Program-made: the position numbers and the translations under genes | DNA from: Eledone cirrhosa | Lineage: Eukaryota | NCBI GenBank assembly: GCA_964016885.1 | Contig: OZ024764.1 | Span: 8,246,001 to 8,310,000, forward strand | Direction: 5' to 3' | DNA: 64,000 nucleotides | Shown: in pieces, positions 4,519 through 55,690 of the stretch | Position numbering within the stretch: position 1 is the first letter of the stretch | Layout: every line of letters begins with the position of its first letter | Notes under the pieces: generated by a model | The model's input: the letters and a program-made list of their open reading frames with translations, nothing else | Databases searched by the model: none | What the model was told of the DNA's origin: nothing

Positions 4519-5463
4519 GTGGAAGGACAGCCACGAATCAAGTCAGCAGATGTTCTTGGAAGGGTCTACAGCGTCCATCCCACTCAGTTTGAGTGTTTCT
4601 GCCTAAGAATGCTCCTGTTTGAGGTTAGAGGACCACGGTCTTTCCAAGACCTGAGAACCATCAATGGCCATCAATGTTCCACCTACCGTTTGGCTTGCCA
4701 GCTGCGTGGTATGTTACACGATGACAGCCATTGGCACCTCACCCTGCAGGAAGCAGCAATTGCTAAAGTCCCTTCTCAGATACGCAAGCTTTTTGCTATT
4801 ATGCTGCACAACTGCGATCTCGCCGACCCTCTCGCAATGTGTAACAACCACCGCGAAGGTCTGGCTGAGGACATGCTCCACCGCACAAGCAGACACAATC
4901 CGAACATAACATACAATGTCGTTTTCAATGAGGCACTCATTGGCCTTGAAAACAGTGTCCTGGAGATTGGTGGTAGGCCTCTAAATCACTACAGCTTACC
5001 TGCTCCTGACAGAAGTGTCCAGAGGTCAACGTCTACAGAGCTTCTCCGCGAGACGAGCTACGAGATCAGTGCTCTTCGGGACTTCATTACTACCAACGAA
5101 CCTAAATTGGTCCATGACCAGCAACTGGCTTACAACACCATTGTTGATGATGTGACAAACAACAACGCTGGCCTCTTCTTCGTTGATGATCCAGGAGGCA
5201 CGGGAAAGACATTCGTCATCAACCTCTTACTTGCAACGGTCAGAAAGAACAGATGGATTGCACTGGCCATTGCTTCCTCTGGAATTACAGCGACCCTTCT
5301 CTCCGGAGGCCGTACCACCCATTCAGGTTTCAAAATCCCGCTGAACATTGTGAATATTGATACTGCAACTTGCAACATTCCACGAGGAAGTGGCCTGGGC
5401 GATCTCATCAAGCAGTGTCGCCTCATTGTCTGGGATGAATGCACTATGGCTCACAAAGCCTTT
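4519..5463 (+). mobile_element. Helitron Rep-helicase fragment (PIF1-family helicase, N-terminal half)
   Basis: GRVYSVHP..ECFCLRMLL..VRGPRSFQDLRT; Walker A PGGTGKT; ASSGITATLLSGGRTTHS; Walker B LIVWDEC. Preceded by pyrimidine tract + CAG (4505-4519). Truncated by an RTE. Confidence 0.92.
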
Positions 5464-6825
5464 GACAGAGTCCCCCCGTTCCATTATCTGGTGGGCTCTT
5501 AGAAAACTAGGTGTTGATGACTGGCTTGTGAGAGCTATACAAGCCATGTATAAAGAAACAGTCAGCAAGGTTAGAATTAACAGCGAATATAGTGAAGAGT
5601 TTATTGTAAAAGTTGGTGTTCATCAGGGCTCCGTTCTTAGCCCCCTACTATTTATTATTGCCCTTCAGGCTATAACAGTGGAGTTCAAGACCGGCTGCCC
5701 ATGGGAACTACTATACGCAGATGATCTAACGCTCATAGCTGAATCAATGGCTGAACTAGAGAAGAAATTCCAAACATGGAAGCATGGCCTAGAATCAAAA
5801 GGCCTTAAAATTAACCTGGCTAAGACTAAAGTTCTAGTTTGTAGAAAGGAAAATAGGGCACCGGTCCCATCCGGGAAATGGCTCTGCTTAGTGTGTAGGA
5901 AAGGAATAGACAGAAACTCCATTTTATGTCCCAAATGCAAAGTATGGGTGCATAAAAGATGTAGTGGGATCACAGGTAAGCTAACTAAGAATATAGATTT
6001 TATATGTGGCTGGTGCGCTGGTATAATAAGTAGCAGCAAATGCCCACAGAATACTAGCTCAATCCATTGCACAGATGGTTCTATAGAAATAGTGGACACC
6101 TTCCGTTACTTGGGTGACAAAATCAGCAGTGGGGGAGGGTGTTCTGAAAGTACAGTAGCTAGAGTCAGAACTGGATGGGAAAAGTTCAGAGAGCTTATAC
6201 CACTATTAGCCGCTAAAGGGTTCTCTCTAAAAATGAAAGGCAGGCTGTATGATGCCTGCATACGAACATCAATGTTACATGGCAGTGAGACCTGGGCATT
6301 GTGTGCAGAGGATATACGCAGACTGGAGAGAAACGAAGCTTGCACGCTCCGCTGGATGTGTAATAGTAATATACGTGAACGGCAAAGCATAAACGAACTA
6401 AGTGAGAAATTAGGAATAAGAGGGATCAGATGTTGTTTGACGACAGCTGTATAAAAAAGTGCAGGGCAATAAAAATAGACGGTAGCCACGGAGTAGGCAG
6501 ACCCAGAAAAACCTGGGACGACTTGATAAATTCTACCTCACACACTTACACCTCTCCAAGACAATGTCACTGGACCGAGATCTTTGGCGCTACACAGTAA
6601 TACAGAAGACCCGCCTTGCCTAAGTACAGAGTGAAACCTACTACAGTCAGTAGGCACCTCTAACAAAAATACACCACCACCCTATCCACACCACCACTTT
6701 TGATTTAAAGTTATGTTGGTACCACAACATCCAGTCCGAAACAAATGAGGTCGTGTAGGTGTCACGACAAAAAAACACAGTCCACGCTGTAATGTGGTCG
6801 TGTAGGTAACACGGTAAAATACATA
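5455..6825 (+). mobile_element. 5'-truncated RTE-clade LINE (RT C-half with PHD-like insert, 3' UTR)
   Basis: KAFDRVP, GVHQGSVLSPLLF, LYADD, FRYLG, LHGSETW, GRPRKTW. 3' UTR matches the copy at 45183-45600(-). Confidence 0.92.
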
Positions 6826-22550: not shown

Positions 22551-22884
22551 AAAGAGTCTTGCTGCTCTCTGGACTGTAAGCTTCAAGGAGATGGAAGTAT
22601 TCCACCAGCCTGCACTTCAGGAAGAGTACCACCCTCCCTATATCAACATTTACCCCCCAGCGAGAGGGTTTAAATATCTTTGTTTACAGTCGAGCGATAG
22701 CCATAGAAGGTTATACAGGTGAGACGTCTTTTTAACCGCTTTTTTTTTTTTTTTTTGCGACCTTATGTAAATAAACTCCATGTCTTTGGCCCTCTGGCCA
22801 CAGAGAAGATCTTACAAGCCAGACAGAGCAGTGAACCTTCGAGAAGGAGACTGAGGTGTGACACACAATACTTCCACTGAAATA

Positions 22885-25860: not shown

Positions 25861-26839
25861 ACCACAATTGAAGAACAAGACAGTCACCATCAGTTTTCGA
25901 TTGACAACCATAACCACACCCCGTAACAATACATATATATCACCACATGACCAGCAATGTATTAACAATTTTCAAATGAAAAATATATTCACACCTGAAT
26001 TACTTCCATTTATGCCGTTTACATATATTATTTTGTCAACAAATAATTAAAAATACTAGCACAAGACCCACCCTATGGGTGGTTTTCTGCTAGCCTGTGT
26101 AGTGTGTATATTGATATTATACACAAGTATATATACATGTAAATATGATACATCAAACAGTAATTGACAATATACACAGAAATTGAACCAAACCTGTTAC
26201 ACTGTCTTCTGTAATCCAGGATATATTTAAAAAAAGACGACATTATATATAAACTGCAGGAGAAAATTAGCGACTGAAATATATGTGATTATAAGTGTTA
26301 TAATATAACTGTTTCTATTTTTGGCACAAGGTCAGCAATTACCCAGTACATTACTGGTACTTTATTTTATTGACCTCGTAAGGATGAAAGGCAAAGTTCA
26401 CCTTGGCCGCTAACAGGAAGTGTTGACATTTGATAATTTTAAAGAAGTGAATGTTTAAATAAGCTATAAAATATATTTAATCAACAGCCACGAAATTTAG
26501 TACATCAATTATGTAATATTCATTCATTATTTATTCAAAGTAATCCAACTTCTTTTACAAACGGGGTAAAAAAATATATTCTGGGCGCAATCCCGCAGAC
26601 CTTCCTTTATTATAGTTAAGATAACTACTAGTATTTTGTACATATATACAGAACAATTAATATATACTTATTTCATGATGGTAACATATGTTACAGGCTG
26701 ATCTGTTTCTGGAAATCAGATGCAAACCTTCGATTTTAGCCCATAACAGGTTTAAGATCCCATTAAGGGTGAAAGCAGCGATTCTTTAATCTGTTATTTT
26801 AATAAATATATATAAAATTGTATATGCACATATATATAA

Positions 26840-27622
26840 TTGTTTTATCTGGTTGGGGCACCACGCTTGTTGCTACACATTCTATCTCCAGCCTGTGTTG
26901 GCTGGCTCTTGGTGCAAGAGGGAGTTCGTTGCTACTGCCCTTAGGTTACCATCGTACCGTGCTGTGGGCTCATCCGGGATTCTGGATAGCAGGGGGTCAA
27001 CATGTTTCTTGAAAACATCCACATGCAGATCTCTCAAATTTCTTGGCAGCTTATTGAAGAGTTGAGGGCTTTTGAAACCCAGGCTATTGCAATATCTGCT
27101 CCTTATTTTAGATGTGAAAGACGGGACCTTTGGCACCACTCAGTGACGTCCTGTCCGGGGGTTGGTCCAGCTCTCAATGTCAAAGTTTGGTGTTAGTCCT
27201 CCACGATTTTCCACATGTATATCACTGCATATCTCTCCTGTCTTCATTTCAAGGAGTAGAGATTCAGTTCTTTTAGTCTACCATTGCAATCCTTTTGGTG
27301 TAGCTACGTTGGATTGCCTCAAGCTCTGTGGTTAGTTTGATACTATGGGGTGACCACAGCTGGGAGCAATAGTCCAGGCAGCTAAGGACAAATGTCCTCC
27401 ATAGGTCTCTTGTCTGGAAAGTCCTCAACATCGAGCCAGCGAGTTGTCTCCACCCTCAAGATGTGTGAAGAAAAAGATGCATTGTCGCTCATGTCTATTC
27501 CCAGGGCTCATATAGATTTTGATCCCTCCTGGTCCGGTGTAGCTGTGTTTGCAGGTTGTTATTGTAGGGCTTGAAATTTTCCAGCATTAAACTGTATATT
27601 TTTGTCCTCAGCCCATTTGTAT
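26840..27622 (-). mobile_element. CR1-type LINE fragment, inverted paralogue of ~1990-2725
   Basis: Matching ORF-track peptides (MVPKVPS..RSRYCNSLGFK; MSSIG.LS.KSSTSSQRVV). Confidence 0.85.
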
Positions 27623-29000
27623 TTCAGTACACTGGGTAGTGACCACCAGCTTGTTATAAGTGAGGTCCGGGTGAGCTTAAGAAAGAGCAAAGTTCAGCCC
27701 CAGAGATGACTGGGGAGCTTTCAAGGAAGATAAGCTACAGGAGAGGTTCATAGTAGAAATGAGGAACAGGTTCAGTGCTCTGTGTGGAAAGTGTGACGAG
27801 GACTTACAGGTATTTCACCAATGCAGTGGCAGAAGCAAGTGAAACCTTGGTGCCGAGGAGAGAGAAGAGGAAGCACGTCAGCTCTGCAAACCCAAAAGTG
27901 TGTGCAGCCAGAGAACACCTGAAAGCTGCCAAGGACCAATTCTATGCTGATCCTACGGAGGAGAGGAAAGAACTCTGTACCAGGGAAGCGCTGATGGAGA
28001 AGATCAGAAGTATGGAGAGAGCAGTTGACAGGTCTGGGTGTAAGGAGAGCTGGATGATCATCAACGAGATCACAGGGAGGAAGAGAAGGTGTTCGAGTCA
28101 GATCCAGGGAACAGGGCCTGAGGATAGGAAGAGGAAATGGCTAGACCATTTTAGGACCCTACTAGGAGAACCGCCCAGAACACTGGGGAGATCAGGCGTC
28201 TGTTTGAGGAACTGGATATTGAGACAGGACCCTTCACCAGAGAGGAGCTTCAGAGAGCTAAGAAAAAGATCAAGGAGGGCAAGGCTCATGGAGAAGATGG
28301 AGTGGCATCAGAGGTGATGAAGAGGTGTGATTTTGATGATTTCATCCTGGAGTTCTGTAACCAGGCGCTGGAGAAAGGAGTTGCCCCGAATCAGTAACAT
28401 CGTCCCAGTGTCAAAGAAGGGAGATCTCTCTAACACCAACAACTACAGGGGGATCTCACTGACATCATTTGTGGCAAAGACCCACAACAGGATGATTCTT
28501 AACAGGATCCAGCCCGAGATGGTGAAGCTCAGGGACAACCAGAACGGCTTCAGAGAGGGTAGATCAACCACCAGTCACATCCTAGTGCTGAGGAGGATAT
28601 CAGAGGGAGCTAGAGCAAAGAGCCTTCCTGCAGTCATGGTTTTCATTGACTTTAGAAAAGCCTTTGATTCTGTGGACCGTCACTGCCTGATGAAGATCTT
28701 ACAGGCTTATGGAATCCCCAAGAAGATAGTGGACCTGATATCACTGCTCTACACCAACACCAAAGCCCAAGTCATTACACCTGATGGGATGACGGAGTTC
28801 TTTGAGATACTGGCTGGAGTGCTCCAGGGAGGTACATTGGCTCCCTACCTTTTTATCATCGTAGTGGACTATTTTATGTGGACTCTGGCTTTACTGTAGC
28901 ACCGGCTCAGAGCAGGAGAGTTAAGGCGAAAAAGATATCAGATGCTGAATTTGCCGACGACATAGTTTTGGTGACAAATACAGTGAAGGAGGCTGGGGAT
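27622..29000 (+). mobile_element. Decayed RTE-group LINE (end of APE endonuclease to RT)
   Basis: GSDHQLV; KKGDLSNTNNYRGISL; NQNGFREGRST; FIDFRKAFDSV; GVLQGGTLAPYLF; EFADD. Confidence 0.9.
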
Positions 29001-29199
29001 GTGTCGATGAGTAGTCGCCAGTCTGGGTGACCGCCTTTAAGTTATCCAGACTGACAACTGGCTCTGGCTCCCTTCAGGTCTTAAACACTTCAGTCCCTTG
29101 GATTGTGTTTACCATTATTATATTTCTTTAGAAGATAAATTTCGTAACACCTGATGATGTATATATATAATATATATATATAATATGTATATATATATA

Positions 29200-30081
29200 C
29201 AGTGTGCAGATGATATCTGTTTGCAAGTTTACTGTCTAGGAAAAATAACACTGTAGTTTTATTTTTTAAGGTATATTTATCAAACTTGGGTCAGTTTGTC
29301 TTCATGGCTTGTTCTTTCGATCTCACTCGATAAACCCGCCATTGGCTTTGAAGACGGCCTCGGAACCGGCTACAGGCCTTTGTCACTGTCCCCCGACTTA
29401 GGCCCCTAAAGGCACTTGTGATCCTGGCCTTCAGATCGTCTTTCGTATTGCAGCTAGATCTGTTGGTGTCTCGTTCCACTGCGCCCCACACAAAGAAGTC
29501 GAGGGGGTTGCAGTCAGGTGAGCTGGGAGGCCAGATGTCGGGTGAAGTGTGGTCGACGAAGTTCTCTGTCAGCCAGGCTTGAGTCTTTCGGCTGGTATGG
29601 CAGGGCGCTCTGAGTCTTGCTGCCACACGTACGGCCTACCTGCAGCTACCTGGTCGATCCAGGGCTTTACTACCTCGCTCAGAACGCGGATGTAGCCATC
29701 AGTGTTCAGCTTGAGGCCCTCAGGGAAGAAGTGAGGTGGCATGACGTCACCTTGACTGCTGACGACACCTAAGACCAATGTTGTCGCTGGAAACTTTGTC
29801 TGCATGACTCTGGGCACGTCTTTGGATGAGACAGCGAACCATCTGTTGTTCTGAGAGTTGATCTTCTGGTCTTATTTGTCCTCCCAGCGCGGATTCCAAG
29901 AAGAACTCTGTGTCTCTTCCACAAATTTGGAGGTTCAAAATTATTCATAATCAATTATTCTGAAAATAAATAATGGAAATATAGTCACTGTTTTCACGAC
30001 ACAAGAGTGACAACGGAAGTAAAAAAAATTTTGCATAAAATTAGCAGTTGAAAATTGCAAACAAATATCGTCCACACCCTG
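29200..30081 (-). mobile_element. Internally deleted Tc1/mariner element (DD37D maT-like)
   Basis: TIRs CAG(G)GTGTGGACGATATTTGTTTGCAA at both ends in TA context; YVWQQDS, WPPSSPDCNPLDFFVWG. Confidence 0.9.
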
Positions 30082-30172: not shown

Positions 30173-30174
<2 letters not shown>

Positions 30175-30204
<30 letters not shown>

Positions 30205-31530
30205 TTTACGTCCGCTTTTCCCTGCTTGCAAGGGTGGGACGGGTCTTATTCAGCACAGCATCTCTCCACTCGTCACAGTCCTTCGTCATCTCCACCGTGA
30301 GCTTCAGCGATCTGAGGTCTGTTCTCACCACCTCTGCCCATGTTTTTTCGTGGTCTACCTCTACCACGTCTTCCTTCAACTGGCATTTCCTGGCACTTCT
30401 TCACCCATCAGTCATCCTCCATGCACATCACATGTCCATACCACCTCAGTCTCCTCTCTCGCACACTACATTCTATCCCTCTCAGACACAGTTTCTCTCT
30501 CAATACATCACATGTCCATACCACCTCAGTCTCCTCTCCCGTACACTACATTCTATCCCTCTCAGACACAGTTTCTCTCTCTCAACACATCACATGTCCA
30601 TACCACCTTAGTCTCCTCTCCCGTACACTACATTCTATCCCTCTCAGACACAGTTTCTCTCTCAACACATCACATGTCCATACCACCTCAGTCTCCTCTC
30701 CCGCACACTACATTCTATCCCTCTCAGACACAGTTTCTCTCTCTCAACACATCACATGTCCATACCACCTCAGTCTCCTGTCCCGTACACTACATTCTAT
30801 CACTCTCAGACACAGTTTCTCTCTCTCAACACATCACATGTCCATACCACCTTAGTCTCCTCTCCCGCACACTACATTCTATCCCTCTCAGACACAGTTT
30901 CTCTCTCTCAACACATCACATGTCCATACCACCTTAGTCTCCTCTCCCGTACACTACATTCTATCCCTCTCAGACACAGTTTCTCTCTCAACACATCACA
31001 TGTCCATACCACCTCAGTCTCCTGTCTCACACGCTACATTCTATCCCTCTCAGACACAGTTTCTCTCTCTCAACACATCACATGTCCATACCACCTCAGT
31101 CTCCTCTCCCGTACACTACATTCTATCCCTCTCAGACACAGTTTCTCTCTCTCAACACATCACATGTCCATACCACCTCAGTCTCCTCTCCCGTACACTA
31201 CATTCTATCCCTCTCAGACACAGTTTCTCTCTCTCAACACATCACATGTCCATACCACCTCAGTCTCCTGTCCCGTACACTACATTCTATCCCTCTCAGA
31301 CACAGTTTCTCTCTCTCAACACATCACATATCCATACCACCTTAGTCTCCTCTCCCGTACACTACATTCTATGCCTCTCAGACACAGTTTCTCTCTCAAC
31401 ACATTTATGCTGGGTCGTTCACGCACATTTACACTGCACATCCAACGGAGCATGCTTGCCTCATTTCTCTCCAGCCGTCGCATATCCTCTGTAGTTGCTG
31501 CCTATGTCTCACTACCATGCAGCAGTGAGA
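30175..31530 (-). mobile_element. 5'-truncated RTE with internal 80/82-bp tandem array (30425-31400, ~12 copies)
   Basis: LHGSET..MRRLERNEASMLRWMC, array of REKLCLRG..ERRLRWYGHVMC-coding units, then MEDD.WVKKCQEMPVEG..RGRPRKTW and 3' tail with (GAT)n. Confidence 0.92.
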
Positions 31531-31689
31531 CATATATACATATAATATATATACATATACATATAATCGTTTCTACTTTTGGCACAAGGCCAATATATAT
31601 ATATATAATACATATATACATATAATATATATATACTTATATATATATTACATATTATATATACATATAATACATATATATATTATATA

Positions 31690-32720: not shown

Positions 32721-32809
32721 TGGGCTGGCTTAAGACCCACCCCAGCTCATCTAGGACAGCCCCTGTCTGACTTGTCACAACTGACTTGTCTCAACGGACT
32801 TATATTTAA

Positions 32810-33553
32810 CCCTTTAGCATTTAAACTGGCCAGAACTCTCTCACCTCTTTCTGTTCAAACTGGCTGTAACCGGCCACTGATACCTACATTCAGGTATTGT
32901 TCTCAAAATATATAACATCAAAATCTCGTAGATTCGATATTATGTGAGGTAAAGCCTTTACTGTGAAAATACAATAGTATATGTAGAGTAATGTAAATGT
33001 TATGTGAGATATTATGTGAGGTAAAGCCTTTACTGTGAAAATCATCATCATCATTTCATTTTACGTCCACTTTTCCCTGCTTGCAAGGGTGGGACGGGAA
33101 CTGATTCTGGTTTGATTTCTACAGCTGGATGCCCTTCCTAACACCAACCTCATTTACAGTGTGGGCCGGGTGCTTTTTTGCCGTGGCACCTCCACGTCCA
33201 CTTTGCAGTGGAAGGATAGGGACCCCAGTCCCTATCATCTCATTTCTACAGCTGAGTAAACTGGAGCAATGTGAAATAAAGTGTCTTGCTCAAGGAAACA
33301 ACACATCACCCGGTCTGAGAATTGAACTCACAACCTTTCGATTGCAAGGCCAATGCTCTAACCACTAAGCCATGTGCCTCGTATGCTAATACATTACCGT
33401 CCAGAGTAAACACAACAGTTAAAAAGTGTGACACCAAGAAAAACGACTGAAGGCAGTGGCCATACATATACCACAACAACGATAAATACAGAATGTGTGT
33501 CTATAAATATTTAAATACAGTAGTATATATAGAGTAATGTAAATGCTAAAGGG
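32810..33553 (+). mobile_element. piggyBac-type MITE interrupted by SINE A and extra sequence (33042-33512)
   Basis: TTAA-CCCTTTAGCATTTA ... TAAATGCTAAAGGG-TTAA perfect 14-bp TIRs. Confidence 0.85.
33042..33380 (-). mobile_element. SINE family A
   Basis: Near identical to 1410-1752. Confidence 0.85.
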
Positions 33554-34464: not shown

Positions 34465-37400
34465 TAATATAGAGGTGGTTGATAGCTTCCGGTACCTAGG
34501 TGATCAGATTAGCAAGGGAGGAGGGTGCTCCGGGACCATAGTATCTAGAATAAGGACAGGGTGGAAGATAAAGGAGCTGCTTCCTCTGTTGACAAAGAAG
34601 GGCATATCCCTGTGTATGAAAGGCTGGTTATATGATGCCTGTGTGAGATGCGCGATGCTGCATGGTAGTGTGACATGGGCAGCAACTGCGGAGGATATGT
34701 GACGGCTGGAGAGAAATGAAGCCTAGCATGCTCCGTTGGATGTGCAATGTCAATGTGCGTGAACAACCAAGCATGGACGAATTGAGAGAGAAACTGTGTT
34801 TAAGAGGGATAAGTTGTGGTGTGTGGGAGAGGAGACTGAGATGGTATGGACATGTGATGTGTTGAGAGAGAAACTGTGTATAAGAGGGATAAGTTGTGGT
34901 GTGTGGGAGAGAAGACTGAGATGGTATGGACATGTGATGTGTTGAGAGAGAAACTGTGTATAAGAGGGATAGGTTGTAGTGTGTGGGAGATAAGACTGAG
35001 ATGGTATGGACATGTGGTGTGTTGAGAGAGAAACTGGGTATAAGAGGGATAAGTTGTGGTGTGTGGGAGAGAAGACTGAGATGGTATGGACATGTGGTGT
35101 GTTGAGAGAGAAACTGTGTATAAGAGGGATAAGTTGTGGTGTGTGGGAGAGAAGACTGAGATGGTATGGACATGTGATGTGTTGAGAGAGAAACTGTGTA
35201 TAAGAGGGATAAGTTGTGGTGTGTGGGAGAGAAGACTGAGATGGTATGGACATGTGATGTGTTGAGAGAGAAACTGTGTATAAGAGGGATAAGTTGTGAT
35301 GTGTGGGAGAGTAAACTGAGATGGTATGGACATGTGATGTGTTGAGAGAGAAACTGGGTATAAGAGGGATAGGTTGCGGTGTGTGGGAGAGAAGGCTGAG
35401 ATGGTATGGACATATGATGTGTTGAGAGAGAAACTGGGTATAAGAGGGATAAGTTGTAGTGTGTGGGAGAGAAGACTGAGATGGTATGGACATGTGATGT
35501 GTTGAGAGAGAAACTGTGTATAAGAGGGATAAGTTGTGGTGTGTGGGAGAGAAGACTGAGATGGTATGGACATGTGATGTGTTGAGAGAGAAACTGTCTA
35601 TAAGAGGGATAAGTTGTAGTGTGTGGGAGAGAAGACTGAGATGGTATGGACATGTGATGTGTTGAGAGAGAAACTGTCTATAAGAGGGATAAGTTGTGGT
35701 GTGTGGGAGAGAAGACTGAGATGGTATGGACATGTGATGTGTTGAGAGAGAAACTGTGTATAAGAGGGATAAGTTGTAGTGTGTGGGAGAGAAGACTGAG
35801 ATGGTATGGACATGTGATGTGTTGAGAGAGAAACTGTCTATAAGAGGGATAAGTTGTGGTGTGTGGGAGAGAAGACTGAGATGGTATGGACATGTGATGT
35901 GTTGAGAGAGAAACTGTGTATAAGAGGAATAAGTTGTGGTGTGTGAGAGAGGAGACTGAGATGGTATGGACATGTGATGTGTTGAGAGAGAAACTGTCTA
36001 TAAGAGGGATAAGTTGTGGTGTGTGGGAGAGAAGACTGAGATGGTATGGACATGTGATGTGTTGAGAGAGAAACTGTCTATAAGAGGGATAAGTTGTAGT
36101 GTGTGGGAGAGAAGACTGAGATGGTATGGACATGTGATGTGTTGAGAGAGAAACTGTCTATAAGAGGGATAAGTTGTGGTGTGTGGGAGAGAAGACTGAG
36201 ATGGTATGGACATGTGATGTGTTGAGAGAGAAACTGTGTATAAGAGGGATAAGTTGTAGTGTGTGGGAGAGAAGACTGAGATGGTATGGACATGTGATGT
36301 GTTGAGAGAGAAACTGTCTATAAGAGGGATAAGTTGTGGTGTGTGGGAGAGAAGACTGAGATGGTATGGACATGTGATGTGTTGAGAGAGAAACTGTGTA
36401 TAAGAGGAATAAGTTGTGGTGTGTGAGAGAGGAGACTGAGATGGTATGGACATGTGATGTGTTGAGAGAGAAACTGTCTATAAGAGGGATAAGTTGTGGT
36501 GTGTGGGAGAGAAGACTGAGATGGTATGGACATGTGATGTGTTGAGAGAGAAACTGTGTATAAGAGGAATAAGTTGTGGTGTGTGAGAGAGGAGACTGAG
36601 ATGGTATGGACATGTGATGTGTTGAGAAAGAAACTGTGTATAAGAGGGATAAGTTGTGGTGTGTGAGAGAGGAGACTGCGTTGGTATGGACATGTGATGT
36701 GTTGAGAGAGAAACTGTGTATAAGAGGGATAAGTTGTAGTGTGTGGGAGAGAAGACTGCGATGGTATGGACATGTGATGTGTTGAGAGAGAAACTGTGTA
36801 TAAGAGAGATAGGTTGTGGTGTGTGGGAGAGAAGACTGCGATGGTATGGACATGTGATGTGTTGAGAGAGAAACTGTGTATAAGAGGGATAAGTTGTAGT
36901 GTGTGGGAGAGAAGACTGAGATGGTATGGACATGTGATGTGTTGAGAGAGAAACTGTGTATAAGAGGGATAAGTTGTAGTGTGTGGGAGAGAAGACTGAG
37001 ATGGTATGGACATATGATGTGTTGAGAGAGAAACTGTCTATAAGAGGGATAAGTTGTGGTGTGTGGGAGAGAAGACTGAGATGGTATGGACATATGATGT
37101 GTTGAGAGAGAAACTGGGTATAAGAGGGATAAGTTGTAGTGTGTGGGAGAGAAGACTGAGATGGTATGGACATATGATGTGTTGAGAGAGAAACTGTGTA
37201 TAAGAGGGATAAGTTGTTGTGTGTGGGAGATAAGACTGAGATGGTATGGACATGTGATGTGTTGAGAAAGAAACTGTGTATAAGAGGGATAAGTTGTGGT
37301 GTGTGAGAGAGGAGACTGCGTTGGTATGGACATGTGATGTGTTGAGAGAGAAACTGTGTATAAGAGGGATAAGTTGTAGTGTGCGGGAGAGAAGACTGCG

Positions 37401-40400
37401 TTGGTATGGACATGTGATGTGTTGAGAGAGAAACTGTGTATAAGAGGGATAAGTTGTAGTGTGTGGGAGAGAAGACTGAGATGGTATGGACATGTGATGT
37501 GTTGAGAGAGAAACTGTGTATAAGAGGGATAAGTTGTTGTGTGTGGGAGATAAGACTGAGATGGTATGGACATGTGATGTGTTGAGAAAGAAACTGTGTA
37601 TAAGAGGGATAAGTTGTGGTGTGTGAGAGAGGAGACTGCGTTGGTATGGACATGTGATGTGTTGAGAGAGAAACTGTGTATAAGAGGGATAAGTTGTAGT
37701 GTGCGGGAGAGAAGACTGCGTTGGTATGGACATGTGATGTGTTGAGAGAGAAACTGTGTATAAGAGGGATAAGTTGTAGTGTGTGGGAGAGAAGACTGAG
37801 ATGGTATGGACATGTGATGTGTTGAGAGAGAAACTGTGTATAAGAGGGATAAGTTGTGGTGTGTGGGAGAGAAGACTGAGATGGTATGGACATATGATGT
37901 GTTGAGAGAGAAACTGGGTATAAGAGGGATAAGTTGTAGTGTGTGGGAGAGAAGGCTGAGATGGTATGGACATGTGGTGTGTTGAGAGAGAAACTGGGTA
38001 TAAGAGCGATAAGTTGTGGTGTGTGGGAGAGAAGACTGAGATGGTATGGACATGTGATGTGTTGAGAGAGAAACTGTGTATAAGAGGGATAAGTTGTGGT
38101 GTGTGGGAGAGAAGACTGAGATGGTATGGACATGTGGTGTGTTGAGAGAGAAACTGTGTATAAGAGGGATAAGTTGTAGTGTGCGGGAGAGAAGACTGAG
38201 ATGGTATGGACATGTGATGTGTTGAGAGAGAAACTGTGTATAAGAGGGATAAGTTGTGGTGTGTGGGAGAGAAGACTGAGATGGTATGGACATGTGATGT
38301 GTTGAGAGAGAAACTGTGTATAAGAGGGATAAGTTGTAGTGTGCGGGAGAGAAGACTGAGATGGTATGGACATGTGATGTGTTGAGAGAGAAACTGTCTA
38401 TAAGAGGGATAAGTTGTAGTGTGTGGGAGAGAAGACTGAGATGGTATGGACATGTGATGTGTTGGGAGAGAAACTGTGTATAAGAGGGATAAGTTGTTGT
38501 GTGTGGGAGAGAAGACTGCGTTGGTATGGACATGTGATGTGTTGAGAGAGAAACTGTGTATAAGAGGGATAAGTTGTAGTGTGCGGGAGAGAAGACTGCG
38601 TTGGTATGGACATGTGATGTGTTGAGAGAGAAACTGTGTATAAGAGGGATAAGTTGTAGTGTGTGGGAGAGAAGACTGAGATGGTATGGACATGTGATGT
38701 GTTGAGAGAGAAACTGTGTATAAGAGGGATAAGTTGTTGTGTGTGGGAGATAAGACTGAGATGGTATGGACATGTGATGTGTTGAGAAAGAAACTGTGTA
38801 TAAGAGGGATAAGTTGTGGTGTGTGAGAGAGGAGACTGCGTTGGTATGGACATGTGATGTGTTGAGAGAGAAACTGTGTATAAGAGGGATAAGTTGTAGT
38901 GTGCGGGAGAGAAGACTGCGTTGGTATGGACATGTGATGTGTTGAGAGAGAAACTGTGTATAAGAGGGATAAGTTGTAGTGTGTGGGAGAGAAGACTGAG
39001 ATGGTATGGACATGTGATGTGTTGAGAGAGAAACTGTGTATAAGAGGGATAAGTTGTGGTGTGTGGGAGAGAAGACTGAGATGGTATGGACATATGATGT
39101 GTTGAGAGAGAAACTGGGTATAAGAGGGATAAGTTGTAGTGTGTGGGAGAGAAGGCTGAGATGGTATGGACATGTGGTGTGTTGAGAGAGAAACTGGGTA
39201 TAAGAGCGATAAGTTGTGGTGTGTGGGAGAGAAGACTGAGATGGTATGGACATGTGATGTGTTGAGAGAGAAACTGTGTATAAGAGGGATAAGTTGTGGT
39301 GTGTGGGAGAGAAGACTGAGATGGTATGGACATGTGGTGTGTTGAGAGAGAAACTGTGTATAAGAGGGATAAGTTGTAGTGTGCGGGAGAGAAGACTGAG
39401 ATGGTATGGACATGTGATGTGTTGAGAGAGAAACTGTGTATAAGAGGGATAAGTTGTGGTGTGTGGGAGAGAAGACTGAGATGGTATGGACATGTGATGT
39501 GTTGAGAGAGAAACTGTGTATAAGAGGGATAAGTTGTAGTGTGCGGGAGAGAAGACTGAGATGGTATGGACATGTGATGTGTTGAGAGAGAAACTGTCTA
39601 TAAGAGGGATAAGTTGTAGTGTGTGGGAGAGAAGACTGAGATGGTATGGACATGTGATGTGTTGGGAGAGAAACTGTGTATAAGAGGGATAAGTTGTTGT
39701 GTGTGGGAGATAAGACTGAGATGGTATGGACATGTGATGTGTTGAGAAAGAAACTGTGTATAAGAGGGATAACTTGTGGTGTGTGAGAGAGGAGACTGCG
39801 TTGGTATGGACATGTGATGTGTTGAGAGAGAAACTGTGTATAAGAGGGATAAGTTGTAGTGTGTGGGAGAGAAGACTGAGATGGTATGGACATGTGATGT
39901 GTTGAGAGAGAAACTGGGTATAAGAGGGATAAGTTGTAGTGTGTGGGAGAGAAGGCTGAGATGGTATGGACATGTGGTGTGTTGAGAGAGAAACTGGGTA
40001 TAAGAGCGATAAGTTGTGGTGTGTGGGAGAGAAGACCGAGATGGTATGGACATGTGGTGTGTTGAGAGAGAAACTGGGTATAAGAGCGATAAGTTGTGGT
40101 GTGTGGGAGAGAAGACCGAGATGGTATGGACATGTGATGTGTTGAGAGAGAAACTGTGTATAAGAGGGATAAGTTGTGGTGTGTGGGAGAGAAGACTGAG
40201 ATGGTATGGACATGTGGTGTGTTGAGAGAGAAACTGTATAAGAGGGATAAGTTGTAGTGTGCGGGAGAGAAGACTGAGATGGTATGGACATGTGATGTGT
40301 TGAGAGAGAAACTGTGTATAAGAGGGATAAGTTGTAGTGTGCGGGAGAGAAGACTGAGATGGTATGGACATGTGATGTGTTGAGAGAGAAACTGTGTATA

Positions 40401-43400
40401 AGGGGGATAAGTTGTGGTGTGTGGGAGAGAAGGCTGAGATGGTATGGACATGTGATGTGTTGAGAGAGAAACTGTGTATAAGAGGGATAAGTTGTGGTGT
40501 GTGGGAGAGAAGACTGAGATGGTATGGACATGTGGTGTGTTTAGAGAGAAACTGTGTATAAGAGGGATAAGTTGTGGTGTGTGGGAGAGAAGACTGAGAT
40601 GGTATGGACATGTGATGAATTGAGAGAAAAACTGTGTATAAGAGGGATAAGTTGTAGTGTTTTGGAGAGAAAACTGAGATGGTATGGACATGTGATGTGT
40701 TGAGAGAGAAACTGTGTATAAGAGGGATAGGTTGTGGTGTGTGGGAGAGAAGACTGAGATGGTATGGACATGTGATGTGTTGAGAGAGAAACTGGGTATA
40801 AGAGGGATAAGTTGTGGTGTGTGAGAGAGGAGACTGCGTTGGTATGGACATGTGATGCGTTGAGAGAGAAACTGTGTATAAGAGGGATAAGTTGTTGTGT
40901 GTGGGAGATAAGACTGAGATGGTATGGACATGTGATGTGTTGAGAAAGAAACTGTGTATAAGAGGGCTAACTTGTGGTGTGTGAGAGAGGAGACTGCGTT
41001 GGTATGGACATGTGGTGTGTTGAGAGAGAAACTGTGTATAAGAGGGATAAGTTGTAGTGTGCGGGAGAGAAGACTGAGATGGTATGGACATGTGATGTGT
41101 TGAGAGAGAAACTGTGTATAAGAGGGATAAGTTGTGGTGTGTGGGAGAGAAGACTGAGATGGTATGGACATGTGATGTGTTGAGAGAGAAACTGTGTATA
41201 AGAGGGATAAGTTGTAGTGTGCGGGAGAGAAGACTGAGATGGTATGGACATGTGATGTGTTGAGAGAGAAACTGTCTATAAGAGGGATAAGTTGTAGTGT
41301 GTGGGAGAGAAGACTGAGATGGTATGGACATGTGATGTGTTGAGAGAGAAACTGTGTATAAGAGGGATAAGTTGTTGTGTGTGGGAGATAAGACTGAGAT
41401 GGTATGGACATGTGATGTGTTGAGAAAGAAACTGTGTATAAGAGGGATAACTTGTGGTGTGTGAGAGAGGAGACTGCGTTGGTATGGACATGTGATGTGT
41501 TGAGAGAGAAACTGTGTATAAGAGGGATAAGTTGTAGTGTGTGGGAGAGAAGACTGAGATGGTATGGACATGTGATGTGTTGAGAGAGAAACTGGGTATA
41601 AGAGGGATAAGTTGTAGTGTGTGGGAGAGAAGGCTGAGATGGTATGGACATGTGGTGTGTTGAGAGAGAAACTGGGTATAAGAGCGATAAGTTGTGGTGT
41701 GTGGGAGAGAAGACCGAGATGGTATGGACATGTGGTGTGTTGAGAGAGAAACTGGGTATAAGAGCGATAAGTTGTGGTGTGTGGGAGAGAAGACCGAGAT
41801 GGTATGGACATGTGATGTGTTGAGAGAGAAACTGTGTATAAGAGGGATAAGTTGTGGTGTGTGGGAGAGAAGACTGAGATGGTATGGACATGTGGTGTGT
41901 TGAGAGAGAAACTGTATAAGAGGGATAAGTTGTAGTGTGCGGGAGAGAAGACTGAGATGGTATGGACATGTGATGTGTTGAGAGAGAAACTGTGTATAAG
42001 AGGGATAAGTTGTAGTGTGCGGGAGAGAAGACTGAGATGGTATGGACATGTGATGTGTTGAGAGAGAAACTGTGTATAAGGGGGATAAGTTGTGGTGTGT
42101 GGGAGAGAAGGCTGAGATGGTATGGACATGTGATGTGTTGAGAGAGAAACTGTGTATAAGAGGGATAAGTTGTGGTGTGTGGGAGAGAAGACTGAGATGG
42201 TATGGACATGTGGTGTGTTTAGAGAGAAACTGTGTATAAGAGGGATAAGTTGTGGTGTGTGGGAGAGAAGACTGAGATGGTATGGACATGTGATGAATTG
42301 AGAGAAAAACTGTGTATAAGAGGGATAAGTTGTAGTGTTTTGGAGAGAAAACTGAGATGGTATGGACATGTGATGTGTTGAGAGAGAAACTGTGTATAAG
42401 AGGGATAGGTTGTGGTGTGTGGGAGAGAAGACTGAGATGGTATGGACATGTGATGTGTTGAGAGAGAAACTGGGTATAAGAGGGATAAGTTGTGGTGTGT
42501 GAGAGAGGAGACTGCGTTGGTATGGACATGTGATGCGTTGAGAGAGAAACTGTGTATAAGAGGGATAAGTTGTAGTGTGTGGGAGAGAAGATTGAGATGG
42601 TATGGACATGTGATGTGTTGAGAGAGAAACTGGGTATAAGAGGGATAAGTTGTAGTGTGTGGGAGAGAAGACTGAGATGGTATGGACATGTGATGTGTTG
42701 AGAGAGAAACTGTGTATAAGAGGGATAAGTTGTAGTGTGCGGGAGAGAAGACTGAGATGGTATGGACATGTGATGTGTTGAGAGAGAAACTGTGTATAAG
42801 AGGGATAAGTTGTGGTGTGTGGGAGAGAAGACTGAGATGGTATGGACATGTGATGTGTTGAGAGAGAAACTGTGTATAAGAGGGATAAGTTGTAGTGTGC
42901 GGGAGAGAAGACTGAGATGGTATGGACATGTGATGTGTTAAGAGAGAAACTGTGTATAAGGGGGATAAGTTGTGGTGTGTGGGAGAGAAGGCTGAGATGG
43001 TATGGACATGTGATGTGTTGAGAGAGAAACTGTGTATAAGAGGGATAAGTTGTGGTGTGTGGGAGAGAAGACTGAGATGGTATGGACATGTGGTGTGTTT
43101 AGTGAGAAACTGTGTATAAGAGGGATAAGTTGTGGTGTGTGGGAGAGAAGACTGAGATGGTATGGACATGTGATGAATTGAGAGAAAAACTGTGTATAAG
43201 AGGGATATTTTGTGGTGTGTGGGAGACAAGACTGAGATGGTATGGACATGTGATGTGTTGAGAGAGAAACTGTGTATAAGAGGGATAAGTTGTGGTGTGT
43301 GGGAGAGAAGACTGAGATGGTATGGACATGTGATGAGTTGAGAGAGAAACTGTGTATAAGAGGGATAAGTTGTAGTGTTTTGGAGAGAAAACTGAGATGG

Positions 43401-44290
43401 TATGGACATGTGATGTGTTGAGAGAGAAACTGTGTATAAGAGGGATAAGTTGTGGTGTGTGGGAGAGAAGACTGAGATGGTATGGACATGTGATGAGTTG
43501 AGAGAGAAACTGTGTATAAGAGGGATAAGTTGTAGTGTTTTGGAGAGAAAACTGAGATGGTATGGACATGTGATGTGTTGAGAGAGAAACTGTGTATAAG
43601 AGGAATAAGTTGTGGTGTGTGGGAGAGAAGACTGAGATGGTATGGACATGTGATGTGTTGAGAGAGAAACTGTGTATAAGAGGGATAAGTTGTAGTGTGT
43701 GGGAGAGAAGACTGAGATGGTATGGACATGTGATGTGTTGAGAGAGAAACTGTGTATAAGAGGGATAGGTTGTGGTGTGTGGGAGAGAAGACTGAGATGG
43801 TATGGACATGTGATGTGTTGAGAGAGAAACTGTGTATAAGAGGAATAAGTTGTGGTGGGTGGGAGAGAAGACTGAGATGGTATGGACATGTGATGTGTTG
43901 AGAGAGAAACTGTGTATAAGAGGGATAAGTTGTAGTGTGTGGGAGAGAAGACTGAGATGGTATGGACATGTGATGTGTTGAGAGAGAAACTGTGTATAAG
44001 AGGGATAAGTTGTTGTGTGTGGGAGAGAAGACTGAGATGGTATGGACATGTGATGTGCATGGAGGATGACGCTGGGTAAAGAAGTGCCAAGAGATCCCAG
44101 TAGAAGGAAGACTCAGTAGAGGAAGACCACGAAAAACATGGGCGGAGGAGGTGAGAGCTGACCTCAGATTGCTGAAGCTCACAGAGGAGATGACAAAGGA
44201 CGGTGACAAGTGGAGAGATGCTGTGCTGAATAGGACTCGTCCCACCCTTGCAAGCAGGGAAAAAGCAGACGTATGATGATGATGATGATG
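34465..44290 (+). mobile_element. 5'-truncated RTE split by a 9.3-kb internal satellite
   Basis: IEVVDSFRYLGDQISKGGGC..LHGSVTW..MLRWMC before the array; after it MEDD..KKCQEIPVEGRLSRGRPRKTW..RTRPTLASREKADV* and (GAT)n tail. Confidence 0.93.
34780..44056. repeat. 80-bp satellite, ~116 copies, with higher-order structure
   Basis: ttgagagagaaactgtgtataagagggataagttgtggtgtgtgggagagaagactgagatggtatggacatgtgatgtg; block repeats at 480, 1200 and 1678 bp spacing. Confidence 0.98.
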
Positions 44291-44304
44291 ATAAATAATT
44301 ATGG

Positions 44305-44770: not shown

Positions 44771-45230
44771 GGACTGTCTGGCGGGTTTTCTACAGCTGGA
44801 TGCCCTTCCTAACACCAACCACATTTACAGTGTGGGGTTGGGAGGTTTTTACCGTGTTGCCTACACGGCCACATTACAGCGTGGACTGTCTGGCGGGTTT
44901 TCTACAGCTGGATGCCCTTCCTAACACCAACCACGTTTACAGTGTGGGGCTGGGAGGTTTTTACCGTGTTACCTACACGGCCACATTACAGCGTGGACTG
45001 TCTGGCGGGTTTTCTACAGCTGGATGCCCTTCCTAACACCAACCACATTTACAGTGTGGGTCTGGGAGGTTTTTACCGTGTTACCTACACGGCCACATTA
45101 CAGCGTGGACTGTCTGGCGGGTTTTCTACGGCTGGATGCCCTTCCTAACACCAACCACATTTACAGTGTGGGGCTGGGAGGTTTTTACCGTGTTGCCTAC
45201 ACGGTCACATTACACCGTGGACTGTGTGTT
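44771..45230. repeat. 112-bp tandem repeat x4 from a retroelement 3' tail
   Basis: Units start 44771, 44883, 44995, 45107; each holds tttctacagctggatgcccttcctaacaccaacc (SINE A tail) joined to the RTE 3' UTR end. Confidence 0.9.
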
Positions 45231-45600
45231 TTTTGTCATGACACCTACACGATCTCATTTGTTTCGGCCTGAATGTTGTGGTACCAACATAACTTTACAT
45301 TGAAAGGGGCGGTGTGGATGGGGTGGGGGCGGTGGGACGGGGGTGTATTTTGTTAGAGATGCCTACTGACTGTAGTAGGTTTTACTTTGTATTTAGGTAA
45401 GGCGGGTCTTCTCTATTACTGAGTACAGCCAAAGGTCTCGGTCCAGTGACATTGTCTTGGAGAGGTGTAAGTGTGTGAGGTCAGAATTTATCATGTCGTC
45501 CCAGGTTTTCCTGGGTCTGCCTACTCCGTAGCTACCGTCTATCTTTATTGCCCTGCACTTTGTTATACAGCTGTCGTCTTTCATGCGCATCACGTGACAT
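45183..45600 (-). mobile_element. RTE 3' end (same family as 5455-6825)
   Basis: HVMRMKDDSCITKCRAIKIDG..GRPRKTWDD..EKTRLT*; 3' UTR homologous to 6625-6820. Confidence 0.88.
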
Positions 45601-45648
45601 ATATATATATTGTTATACTTGGGGAGGGTCATATTGTTATAATCTATA

Positions 45649-47616: not shown

Positions 47617-48732
47617 TTAACCTGTTAGCATTCAAACCGGTTGTATCTGGCCTGAGAATTCTGGCCAGATACAGCCGGTTTGAATGCTAAAGGGTTAAAT
47701 ATAAATATGAGTGGCCAGCTACAGCCAGTTTGAACAGACAGAGGTGAGAGAATTCTGGTCAGATACAACCGGTTTGAATGCTAAAGGGTTAAATATAAAT
47801 ATGAGTGACCAGTTACAGCCAGTTTGAACAGACAGAGGTGAGAGAATTCTGGTCAGATACAACCGGTTTGAATGCTAAAGGGTTAAATATAAATATGAGT
47901 GACCAGTTACAGCCAGTTTGAACAGACAGAGGTGAGAGAATTCTGGTCAGATACAACCGGTTTGAATGCTAAAGGGTTAAATATAAATATGAGTGACCAG
48001 TTACAGCCAGTTTGAACAGACAGAGGTGAGAGAATTCTGGTCAGATACAACCGGTTTGAATGCTAAAGGGTTAAATATAAATATGAGTGACCAGTTACAG
48101 CCAGTTTGAACAGACAGAGGTGAGAGAATTCTGGTCAGATACAACCGGTTTGAATGCTAAAGGGTTAAATATAAATATGAGTGACCAGTTACAGCCAGTT
48201 TGAACAGACAGAGGTGAGAGAATTCTGGTCAGATACAACCGGTTTGAATGCTAAAGGGTTAAATATAAATATGAGTGGCCAGCTACAGCCAGTTTGAACA
48301 GACAGAGGTGAGAGAATTCTGGTCAGATACAACCGGTTTGAATGTTAAAGGGTTAAATATAAATATGAGTGACCAGTTACAGCCAGTTTGAACAGACAGA
48401 GGTGAGAGAATTCTGGTCAGATACAACCGGTTTGAATGCTAAAGGGTTAAATATAAATATGAGTGACCAGTTACAGCCAGTTTGAACAGACAGAGGTGAG
48501 AGAATTCTAGTCAGATACAACCGGTTTGAATGCTAAAGGGTTAAATATAAATATGAGTGACCAGTTACAGCCAGTTTGAACAGACAGAGGTGAGAGAATT
48601 CTGGTCAGATACAACCGGTTTGAATGCTAAAGGGTTAAATATAAATATGAGTGACCAGCTACAGCCAGTTTGAACAGAACGAGGTGAGAGAATTCTGGCC
48701 AGACACAGCCAGTTTGAATGCTAAAGGGTTAA
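47617..48732 (-). repeat. 94-bp array (~11 copies) of the piggyBac-MITE left end, capped by a fold-back
   Basis: Each unit holds aatgctaaagggTTAA; 47617-47698 is an inverted pair of left ends. Confidence 0.93.
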
Positions 48733-49720
48733 TGTGATGTAGTGTTGTTCTGTACTAAATGTTTATAGTATCTGTCCACCAGGAAAGATTGTTAGTATCT
48801 TGTTAGTATCTTTCCTGGTGGACAGATTGTTCTGAAAATTTACAGTATTACAGTAAAGACTTTAAATATTTAATGTGATGTAGTCAGAGTGTTGTTTTGT
48901 ACTAAATGTTTATAGTATCTTTACTGGTGGACAGATTGTTGTGAACATTTACAGTATTACAGTAAAGACTTTAATATTTAATGTGATGTAGTCATAGTGT
49001 TGTTTTGTACTAAATGTTTATAGTATCTTTCCTGGTGGACAGATTGTTCTGAAAATTTACAGTATTACAGTAAAGACTTTAAATATTTAATGTGATGTAG
49101 TCAGAGTGTTGTTTTGTACTAAATGTTTATAGTATCTTTACTGGTGGACAGATTGTTGTGAACATTTACAGTATTACAGTAAAGACTTTAATATTTAATG
49201 TGATGTAGTCATAGTGTTGTTTTGTACTAAATGTTTATAGTATCTTTACTGGTGGACAGATTGTTGTGAACATTTACAGTATTACAGTAAAGACTTTAAT
49301 ATTTAATGTGATGTAGTCATAGTGTTGTTCTGTACTAAATGTTTATAGTATCTTTACTGGTGGACAGATTGTTGTGAAAATTTACAGTATTACAGTAAAG
49401 ACTTTAATATTTAATGTGATGTAGTCAGTGTTGTTTTGTACTAAATGTTTATAGTATCTTTCCTGGTGGACAGATTGTTATGAACATTTACAGTATTACA
49501 GTAAAGACTTTAATATTTAATGTGTTGTAGTCATAGTGTTGTTTTGTACTAAATGTTTATAGTATCTTTCCTGGTGGACAGATTGTTGTGAAAATTTACA
49601 GTATTACAGTAAAGACTTTAATATTTAATATGATGTAGTCATAGTGTTGTTTCGTACTTTAGAATGTTCCACTAATGTGGTTTCATATCTTTGTTAATTC
49701 AAATGTTTATAGTATCTTCA
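48732..49720. repeat. ~108-bp tandem repeat, ~8 copies
   Basis: taatgtgatgtagtcatagtgttgttttgtactaaatgtttatagtatcttt.ctggtggacagattg... at 48871, 48979, 49088. Confidence 0.93.
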
Positions 49721-49785: not shown

Positions 49786-50004
49786 CTGAAAGGAAACAAA
49801 TACAGAGACAGTTAGAAATAACCATTTAATGTCCATTTTACATTAGCATGGGTCAGACGAGATGTCCCATTGTGAAGCAAGGCAGGTCAGGTGACCGTAT
49901 CTTGCTCATACATATCTCTTTCTGATTTGGTTTCTACAGCTGGATGCCCTGCCTAAAACTGACCACATTACAGAGTGGACTGAGCACTTTTGCCATGACA
50001 CCAG

Positions 50005-50515
50005 CACTACCACTTTACAGAGTGTACTTGGTGTATTTTATCATGACACCAACACTACCACTTTACAGAGTGTACTGAGTGTATTTTACCATAACACCAA
50101 CACTACCACTTTACAGAGTGTACTGGGTGTATTTTACCATAACACCAACTCTACCACTTTACAGAGTGTACTGGGTGTATTTTACCATAACACCAACACT
50201 ACCACTTTACAGAGTGTACTGGGTGTATTTTACCATAACACCAACACTACCACTTTACAGAGTGTACTGGGTGTATCTTACCATAACACCAACACTACCA
50301 CTTTACAGAGTGTACTGGGTGTATTTTACCATAACACCAGCACTACCTCTTTACAGAGAGTACTGGGTGTATTTTACCATAACACCAACACTACCACTTT
50401 ACAGTGTACTGGGTGTATTTTACCATAACACCAACACTACCACTTTACAGAGTGTACTGGGTGTATTTTACCATAACACCAACACTACCACTTTACAGAG
50501 TGTACTGGGTGTATG
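50005..50515. repeat. 48-bp tandem repeat, ~11 copies, continuing from a SINE/RTE tail fragment (49815-50005)
   Basis: agagtgtactgggtgtattttaccataacaccaacactaccactttac. Confidence 0.93.
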
Positions 50516-51245: not shown

Positions 51246-51294
51246 TAGATAGGTAGATAGATAGATAGACAGACAGAAAGATAGACAGATAGAC

Positions 51295-52440
51295 AGTTGC
51301 TTGCTGTAAGTTGTCACACAAGTACTTCCAGTTATCCTCTATATCATACAATTCTAATTCGTTGTCTTTCTCATCATACACATCTTGAAGGGCTTTCATA
51401 AATTTATATTTAAGTGAAAGGTCTTTTAGCTTCCAGACCTTCCTTTACGATACATTCCTGTGGTTCTCATTCTTCATATTGAGATGTCACTAACGACTAA
51501 CCAGTGTTGGGGGAGTACATTCTTCCCCAGGGTATACCTTAGTATTCAAAACCATCTATCTGTCTTGTTGCCTTACTAGCAACAAGTCAATCTGGCTTAT
51601 GGTCTCACCTGGTTGGTAGCTTATTAGGTGATTGGCAGGTTTCCTGAAGTTAGTGTTGCAAATGGTTAGATCACTTGCATCGCCAACATTCAAGAAGCCT
51701 CACTCCGTTTCTTGAGCCATAACCATGACCACCATGTACCCCAGTGTATCCATCCTGGAGCTGTCCAACGTGACCATTAAAGTCCCCTGCTAGTATGACT
51801 AGGTCTCTGTCCTCTGTCATTATGGTTGTCTCTAGAAGTTGCTCGTTAAAGCGTTCCTTCTCTTCTTTACCTAGGCTCACCTGGGGAGCATAGGTAGAGA
51901 TAATTGTCAGCAGTCTCTTGCCTGCAACTAATCTAATCTTAATTATTCTATTACTGACTCTAACTACCTCTACTGTCTTGTCACTCCACTTCTTGGCCAG
52001 TAAAATGCCTACCCTACCTAACACATCATCATTTCCTGCCCAGAGAAGATTATAGCTAAGATGTTTGCCTGCAATTATCCTTGTTGGGGCACTTCTCCAT
52101 CTCACCTCTTGTATGCAGCACACATCCACATATCTTTTCTCTAGAATTTGCTCGTTAAAGAGTCCTTCTCTTCTTTACCTAGGCCTGCTTGGGGAGCATA
52201 GGTAGAGATGATTGTCACCAGTCTCTTGCCTACAACTAATCTAATCTTAATGATTCTACTACTGACTCTAACTACCTCTATTGTCTTGTCAGTCCACTTC
52301 TCGGGCATTAAAATACCTACCCCACCTAACCCACCATCATTTACTACCCAGAGAAGCTTATAGCTAAGATGTTTGCCTGCTATCTCACCTTTTGCACGCA
52401 TCCACGTCTTCTCCCTAGGATCTCCACATCTCACCAGATC
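51295..52440 (-). mobile_element. RTE APE-endonuclease fragments, partly duplicated
   Basis: DVCCIQEVRW, IISTYAPQ, LAGDFNGHVG, GVHGGHGYG, LTICNTNF, SQIDLL; 51835-52072 duplicated at 52147-52381. Confidence 0.9.
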
Positions 52441-55105: not shown

Positions 55106-55199
55106 CTGGAGCAGTCATATAAGAAAGAAAGAAAGAAAGAACAAGCATGAAATCAATGTCGGCAAGGTCAGTGTTTAGTAGCTTCCTTTCATCATATGT

Positions 55200-55690
55200 G
55201 GAGGTTCAGTCTTTTGAAATCAGCTCCCATCATTTCTACGATGGTCTTCCTCTACAGCAGCTTCCTTCCACTGGGATTTCTTGACACTTTTCCACCTACC
55301 AATCACCATCCTTACACATCACATGTCTATACCAGTGCAGTCTTCTCTCCTGCACACTACATCTGATTCCTCTTATACCTAATTTTTCTCTCTGCCCTAG
55401 TCTTCCTTCCACTGGGAACTCCTGGCAATTCTTCACCTACTAATGATCAGCCATACACATCACATGTCTATACCAGTGCAGTCTTCTCTCCTGCACGCTA
55501 CATCTGATTCCTCTTATATCCAGTTTTCTCTGCCCAGGTCTTCCTCTACAGCAGCTTCCTTCCACTGGGAACTCCTGGCAATTCTTCACCTACTAATGAT
55601 CTGCCATACACATCACATGTCTATACCAGTGCAGTCTTCTCTCCTGCACACAGATTTCTCTTATACCCAGTTTTTCATTTTATCATTCCA
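55200..55690 (-). mobile_element. RTE fragment with ~140-150 bp segment triplicated
   Basis: KLGIRGIRCSVQERRLHWYRHVMC..PVEG units; cttccttccactggga at 55261, 55403, 55556. Confidence 0.8.

Follow-up and report, generated by a model that had tools for sequence, protein, structure and literature searches.

An 80-bp coding segment of an RTE-like LINE amplified in place in Eledone cirrhosa, with one junction in two subfamilies

The window analysed here is a stretch of 64,000 nucleotides from Eledone cirrhosa (contig OZ024764.1, positions 8,246,001 to 8,310,000). It contains five copies of an RTE-like LINE family, termed A to E, and in A and B the same coding segment forms a tandem array. The features of these copies are:

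34465..34781, plus strand, 317 bp: 5' flank of copy A, 5'-truncated coding sequence for the C-terminal part of the reverse transcriptase (RT), ending ...QPSMDE
34782..44057, plus strand: array A, 116 units of 80 bp coding for LREKL..RRLRWYGHVMC, 45 of them distinct, with blocks of 15 and 21 units
44058..44292, plus strand, 235 bp: 3' flank of copy A up to the stop codon, with a (TGA)n tail (44273-44292)
30173..30423, minus strand: 3' flank of copy B with a (TGA)n tail
30424 to about 31404, minus strand: array B, 12 units with the junction of array A
about 31400..31534, minus strand: 5' flank of copy B, ending ...RPSINV
5450..6660, plus strand: copy C, an RT and PHD open reading frame of 326 aa, matching copy A at 61-69%, with a 46-nt deletion after 6438
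55184..55683, minus strand: copy D, matching copy A at 72-79%, 5'-truncated in LREK
45300..45601, minus strand: copy E, matching copy C at 93%, 5'-truncated at GHV and joined to a (TA)n target

All five copies are 5'-truncated, with ends at about -935, -317, -128, +7 and +68 (unit start = 1), and no further 3' ends of the family were found in the window by blastn and tblastn. The 326-aa frame of copy C matches Pfam RVT_1 (E = 4.7e-15, 56.3 bits, cut-off 29.6), and its PHD match sits at the Pfam cut-off. Of 4,742 candidates, 3,017 are homologous to this frame. Named homologues within the best 120 include Hydractinia and Branchiostoma proteins, and no clade names occur among those 120. Copies A, B, D and E all align to one RT protein, P0001. 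The frame of copy A terminates in REKADV* and runs straight into the (TGA)n tail, as does that of copy B, which leaves a very short 3' UTR; the 3' region is longer in copies C and E. A SINE family (1409-1745, 33041-33385, 56095-56477 and 1763-1819) shares its last ~60 nt and its tail with copies A and B, which is the usual LINE-SINE partnership. We take the look of these SINEs to be octopus-like. The short 3' UTR, the trinucleotide tail and the SINE sharing it would fit an element of the RTE clade. The label presumably applies, resting on one motif that we take to be RTE, on the tail and on the SINE partner. When four public sequencing runs were aligned on 43945-44240 at 80% identity, 13,981 contigs were obtained in run X1 and 111,702 reads in run X9; the family has thousands of copies.

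For RTE elements a target-site duplication would begin with T about 10 nt behind a run of T; calling of such duplications is clouded by low complexity in both array-bearing copies. Copy B is flanked on both sides by a TA-rich repeat of ~17 nt, and a degenerate AT-rich repeat adjoins TTTTGTTT at copy A. At the 5' joint of copy B (31503-31534) an 11-bp inverted repeat with a 10-nt loop is found, as if the cDNA end had folded back at insertion. A coding-like stretch with a PGGTGKTF motif (4550-5460), presumably a Helitron/PIF1-type helicase, directly abuts copy C on its 5' side. The regions 27620-29000 and 51250-52440 contain another RT fragment, which is more distant (37.6% to P0001), and, on the minus strand, apparent duplicated LINE endonuclease-region fragments noticed by eye.

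Array A spans 9,276 bp with a period of 80 and 95% matches, 114 of its units having 80 bp and two 78 bp. On translation both flanks give sequence of the RT C-terminus in colinear order, and their matches to a single RT protein follow that order. This bears out the original prediction on two points, namely that a segment of the element was amplified in place with colinear sequence on both sides, and that LINE coding DNA was thereby turned into a satellite. Among the 45 distinct units, runs of 14 identical units recur at lags of 15 and 21. Such nested blocks require repeated duplication at the DNA level over time and cannot arise in one round of reverse transcription; the proposed amplification during reverse transcription is thus contradicted for array A. 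No TTAGGG dimers occur within the window.

The minority junctions reported earlier, GATGAATTGAG, are present at the three named sites (about 40614, 42292 and 43172), that is, at 3 of 115 array A junctions. Two of the three GATGAATTG (AATT) junctions lie 1678 bp apart within a 21-unit higher-order duplication, and all three carry the same derived base at unit position 9; hence, they represent one event. Five array A junctions read GATGAA or GATGAG. Two of these are the intermediate GATGAG, and the paths TG to AG to AA and AA to AG to TG need equal numbers of steps. The GATG microhomology suggested for the origin of the array did not survive inspection as an exact one. No exact repeat exists, since the 5' flank of array A reads GACGAA and GACG likewise occurs in the loose ends of the family, so that the AA variant offers only GACG against GATG. 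The majority junction has 0 bp of microhomology with its own flank. An imperfect GA[C/T]G junction may have been the original one, later overwritten, with the five GATGAA/GATGAG junctions as its trace.

As had also been claimed, a second copy is amplified at the same segment. Array B, on the minus strand, consists of 12 units of 80 or 82 bp and has a junction identical to that of array A, GATGTG followed by TTGAG. Units of A and B are 14.0% apart, with fixed differences at positions 19, 21, 31-33 and 60, against 5.0% within A and 3.0% within B. Homogenisation is thus found within the arrays and not between them. The flanks of the two copies differ at 17/126 and 26/218 columns, and their homology ends at the element boundaries, beyond which the insertion sites differ. 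Judged from these alignments, A and B are separate insertions from different subfamilies.

In copy B the junction shows 5 bp of microhomology, ATGTG, between the 5' flank and the unit end. Alternative junctions with at least 5 bp of microhomology number 99 and 128 in the two elements. With 0 bp in A, 5 bp in B and about 100 alternatives in each, independent use of one junction is unlikely. A single dimer ancestor does not fit either, because two subfamilies are involved and both consist mostly of single-unit copies. Across the junction, the majority units of the two arrays agree in 38 consecutive bp; the longest identical run in the flanks is 24 bp. For 10 randomly placed differences such a run has P = 0.009, or 0.03-0.06 if clustered differences are merged. 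The run covers positions at which the family shows few listed variants and may reflect plain conservation. Nevertheless, A likely received its junction from B-type sequence through a brief template switch or a conversion event, a step that the conserved sequence would allow.

Both 5' flank types exist as ordinary copies, as X9 contains 5,496 reads of the A-type flank and 11,367 of the B-type flank. The X9 reads begin at a GCATGC site that A and B both have, 55 nt ahead of the unit, and therefore span the unit end; they were presumably made by an enzyme cutting GCATGC. Across the unit end the depth changes from 84,645 to 84,362, a net fall of 283. This small drop indicates that short duplications at the 80-bp register are rare, about 1% or less of ~31,000 A/B-like reads, a count that covers short-fragment junctions only, since size selection in X9 would hide long arrays. 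Two contigs of X1 whose unit variants do not occur in the window (depths 342.6 and 49.2; single loci about 6-20) appear to cross the A/B junction. The same unit occurs at two loci in the window, and these contigs suggest further arrays elsewhere, although they may be allelic forms of A or B. Use of the 80-bp register outside the window is probable on this basis.

The junction was also encountered in data from other studies. In X6, from an unrelated study, records 17 and 20 are near-identical junction-spanning contigs with one other letter each, and X5 contains a loose end at the A/B junction. We did not accept X6 as a second species, as 13 of its 23.6 million records align and these may be trace DNA. 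A copy number from summed contig depth was likewise discarded, since depth is inflated where short contigs overlap and 819 of the X1 contigs have two possible positions. In X5, depth reaches 13,000-30,000 over the motif (43945-43974 and 44025-44054) against less than 1,700 over most other positions, with C at 44035 and 44037. Most simply, this peak is a very large divergent subfamily; it may also be a tandem motif array in organism B.

According to the original prediction, the motif RRLRWYGHV is a recurrent site of amplification and breakage. The individual events behind this claim are real. Copy D is triplicated at 55244-55651 (period 141, 2.8 copies, from LREK to WAE), and its motif reads RRLHWYRHV. 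The start of its unit coincides with its 5' truncation, as a jump during reverse transcription would produce, and its units are unequally related (16/132, 22/146 and 28/139 differences). Copy C lacks 46 nt after 6438, by codon count against A and E, and with them the motif, and copy E begins at HVMRM near 45600. Each of the five copies with a 3' end in the window shows some event at or within the unit, a point against the reading that we favour below. The breaks, numbered from the unit start, fall at 1/80 in A and B, about 4/167 in D, 42/87 in C and about 68 in E, and are thus spread over about 175 nt. Only left ends recur, near 1-7; they lie in LREK, within its GAGAG run, some 45 nt ahead of the motif. 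What stands of the hotspot is the double use of one register within the window; the scatter does not agree with a single site at RRLRWYGHV. We infer that copy C carries an unrelated deletion and that copy E is an ordinary 5' truncation. Among homologous proteins, 0 of 121 have two motif copies and one has a gap of at least 4 residues near the motif, counts that are uninformative for duplications or gaps because the 121 were open frames picked by a query ending at the motif.

Three junction classes, namely A/B, D and, in X1, a duplication of ~172 bp, fall inside the GAGAG run no more than about 7 nt apart. The X1 joint leads from 44121 through 29 letters to 43979 (depth 39) with TGAGAG microhomology, and the junction of D has AGAG. 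Six distinct go-back joints are among those listed, the same alignment having 47 more joints and 11 insert rows. Three of the six, the ~172-bp duplication and the two X1 contigs at the 80-bp register, go back to the GAGAG run or span it, and three lack the motif. Motif-free duplications in the family lead from 44110 to 44077, from 44229 to 44145 and from 44007 to 43976. Downstream of the motif, X1 contains tandem duplications of about 40 bp (44077-44110, depth 125) and 90 bp (44145-44229, depth 31), which are other nascent arrays in the family. The LREK run has 11-12 microhomology partners against a mean of 4.8-5.9, an excess of roughly 2-fold that lies in the top 5-10% of windows and explains part of the recurrence there, not all. 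Against our reading, too, 8 of the 14 skip joints listed begin at 44049-44069, a count confounded by a private 1-bp deletion of copy A at 44069 and by cross-subfamily drops of identity there. Taken together, the purine run in LREK would be a modestly favoured landing site for duplications.

A stronger version of this idea is that the 80-bp register, or the GAGAG run, is an intrinsic hotspot of replication slippage at which A, B, D and others duplicated independently. One junction in two subfamilies, the return of D and of the ~172-bp duplication to the same run, and the two X1 contigs apparently crossing that junction all speak for it. So does the composition of the unit, which among the 80-mers of copy A is the poorest in C (3 C) and has almost no structure (-0.8 kcal/mol, the median being -6.2). 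However, the majority junction of A lacks microhomology while nearby registers of 90 bp and 117 bp offer 7 bp and 8 bp, the fall of X9 depth across the unit end is small, and the G4Hunter maxima in the unit (0.96 and 0.80) are not the highest of the element. We therefore consider such a hotspot improbable. A G-quadruplex or a hairpin as trigger was rejected, as neither G4Hunter nor folding scores lend it support.

Somewhat less probable still is a first duplication by a template jump of the reverse transcriptase near LREK, or retrotransposition in trans of a dimer-bearing copy, followed by expansion at the DNA level. The units of D begin at its truncation point, and slippage of the RTE reverse transcriptase has been proposed for 3' microsatellites (PMC2887409, available text). 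Yet the unequal relationship of the D units implies successive events, and the five 5' ends are scattered. A mobile dimer lineage would explain one junction at several loci, but A and B each match a different single-unit subfamily, so that one dimer ancestor cannot cover both. The inverted arrangement of A and B, 3.4 kb apart, and an array length known as assembled might recall one local segmental duplication or an assembly artefact, both of which we dismiss as very improbable given 14% divergence with fixed differences, different insertion sites, structured unit variation, and the junction in X6 contigs and at the X5 loose end.

The surroundings of the two copies are rich in other arrays. From 83 tandem-repeat rows, 23 arrays with a period of at least 31 were taken, summing to about 38% of the window, small overlaps included. 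A match elsewhere spanning flank and unit was found for 18 of the 23 arrays and for 15 of the 20 non-RTE arrays, some of these matches going to neighbouring degenerate arrays and not to interspersed copies. Further arrays are:

57306-61458: 72-bp array with a colinear match elsewhere in the window
22885-25857: 43-bp array with a colinear match elsewhere in the window
9185-9566: 32-bp array with a colinear match elsewhere in the window
48804-49658: 108-bp array
63153-63476: 80-bp array

One SINE segment is amplified twice in one register, with 48 bp at 49962-50514 and 49 bp at 56269-56369. A TIR-like segment is also amplified twice, with 94 bp at 47654-48732 and 93 bp at 56626-56884; both arrays stem from one and the same end of a repeat family (ending TAAAGGGTTAA), their junctions differ slightly, and single copies of this family lie at about 340-500 and 32780-32910. 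Consequently, repeated amplification of a segment is a regional trait and not one of the RTE motif alone. The SINE segment is bounded by an imperfect internal direct repeat, and an overlapping 112-bp unit forms a third array (44771-45225).

We favour, with a probability of roughly 0.6, a short-homology duplication followed by post-insertion unequal exchange in this array-rich region, with the junction captured from a B-type template. An 80-bp coding segment of the dead RTE-like copy A is amplified 116-fold between its own flanks, and this likely started with a DNA-level duplication through short homology. The junction would first have formed on B-type sequence through ATGTG. Copy A would then have gained it from a B-type donor, either B or another locus, through template switching or gene conversion, a transfer helped by the 38 bp of identity across the junction. 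Growth of the array was likely due to unequal exchange after insertion, in a place where many repeats form arrays. More tentatively, the junction may be contagious, in that after one copy has duplicated the segment, others, even of other subfamilies, acquire the junction by short template switches and then build up arrays from their own sequence. If true, one 80-bp register could be seeded at many loci and in related species without homogenisation of the units.

Array A documents cleanly how a satellite is born from LINE coding DNA, as both parental flanks are kept and thousands of single-unit relatives represent the ancestral state. If the junction did move between subfamilies, this would explain why the same transposon segment recurs as a satellite unit at separate loci, a recurrence that has been reported for SINE-derived satellites without a mechanistic explanation.

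Satellites from LINE coding DNA and arrays from SINE interiors are kinds already published. A search of titles and abstracts, largely outside subscription journals, found no satellite from RTE coding sequence, and the available text of the review PMC9659126 and of PMC6947457 contains the term 'RTE' 0 times. We also compared the accessible parts of PMC11481361, PMC9115989 and PMC12988792. According to the available text of PMC2887409, LINEs of the RTE clade have a very short 3' UTR ending in simple repeats. Our copies resemble them in being 5'-truncated RT C-terminal pieces with a short 3' UTR, a trinucleotide tail and a SINE with the same tail, but the repeats described there are 3' microsatellites, whereas our 80-bp unit is internal and lies about 215 nt before the tail (PMC2887409, PMC6007223; available text).

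In the model of microhomology-mediated tandem duplication, as described in the accessible part of bioRxiv 10.64898/2026.02.28.708716, a segment between short direct repeats duplicates and then expands. Copy B (ATGTG), copy D (AGAG) and the ~172-bp joint (TGAGAG) agree with this model, but the majority junction of A, with 0 bp of microhomology to its flank, does not. Among LINE-derived satellites, the available text of PMC9659126 describes chicken HinfI (CR1 ORF2), Phodopus PROsat and seal Pvc 20 (both L1 ORF2) and the cetacean common satellite, which derives from the L1 3' end; none of those described there comes from an RTE element. Like these, our arrays are tandem repeats of LINE sequence, which in the known cases includes ORF2. 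In the CR1 and L1 satellites the similarity often concerns part of the monomer, whereas here the whole monomer is a coding segment that still lies in its element.

The squamate SINE-derived satellites (sSat) are amplified from an internal segment of 70-290 nt in a few to hundreds of units. The same segment is found at many loci, mostly subtelomeric, with alternating sub-variants and rare loci that have both termini (PMC10702118, available text). As in sSat, an internal part of a high-copy non-LTR element stands in tandem, and the ends of arrays A and B continue into the element. Unlike in sSat, the arrays derive from LINE coding sequence, each of the two loci retains both flanks, and A and B share one junction across two subfamilies whose units are not homogenised. 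This cross-subfamily junction is the part worth following.
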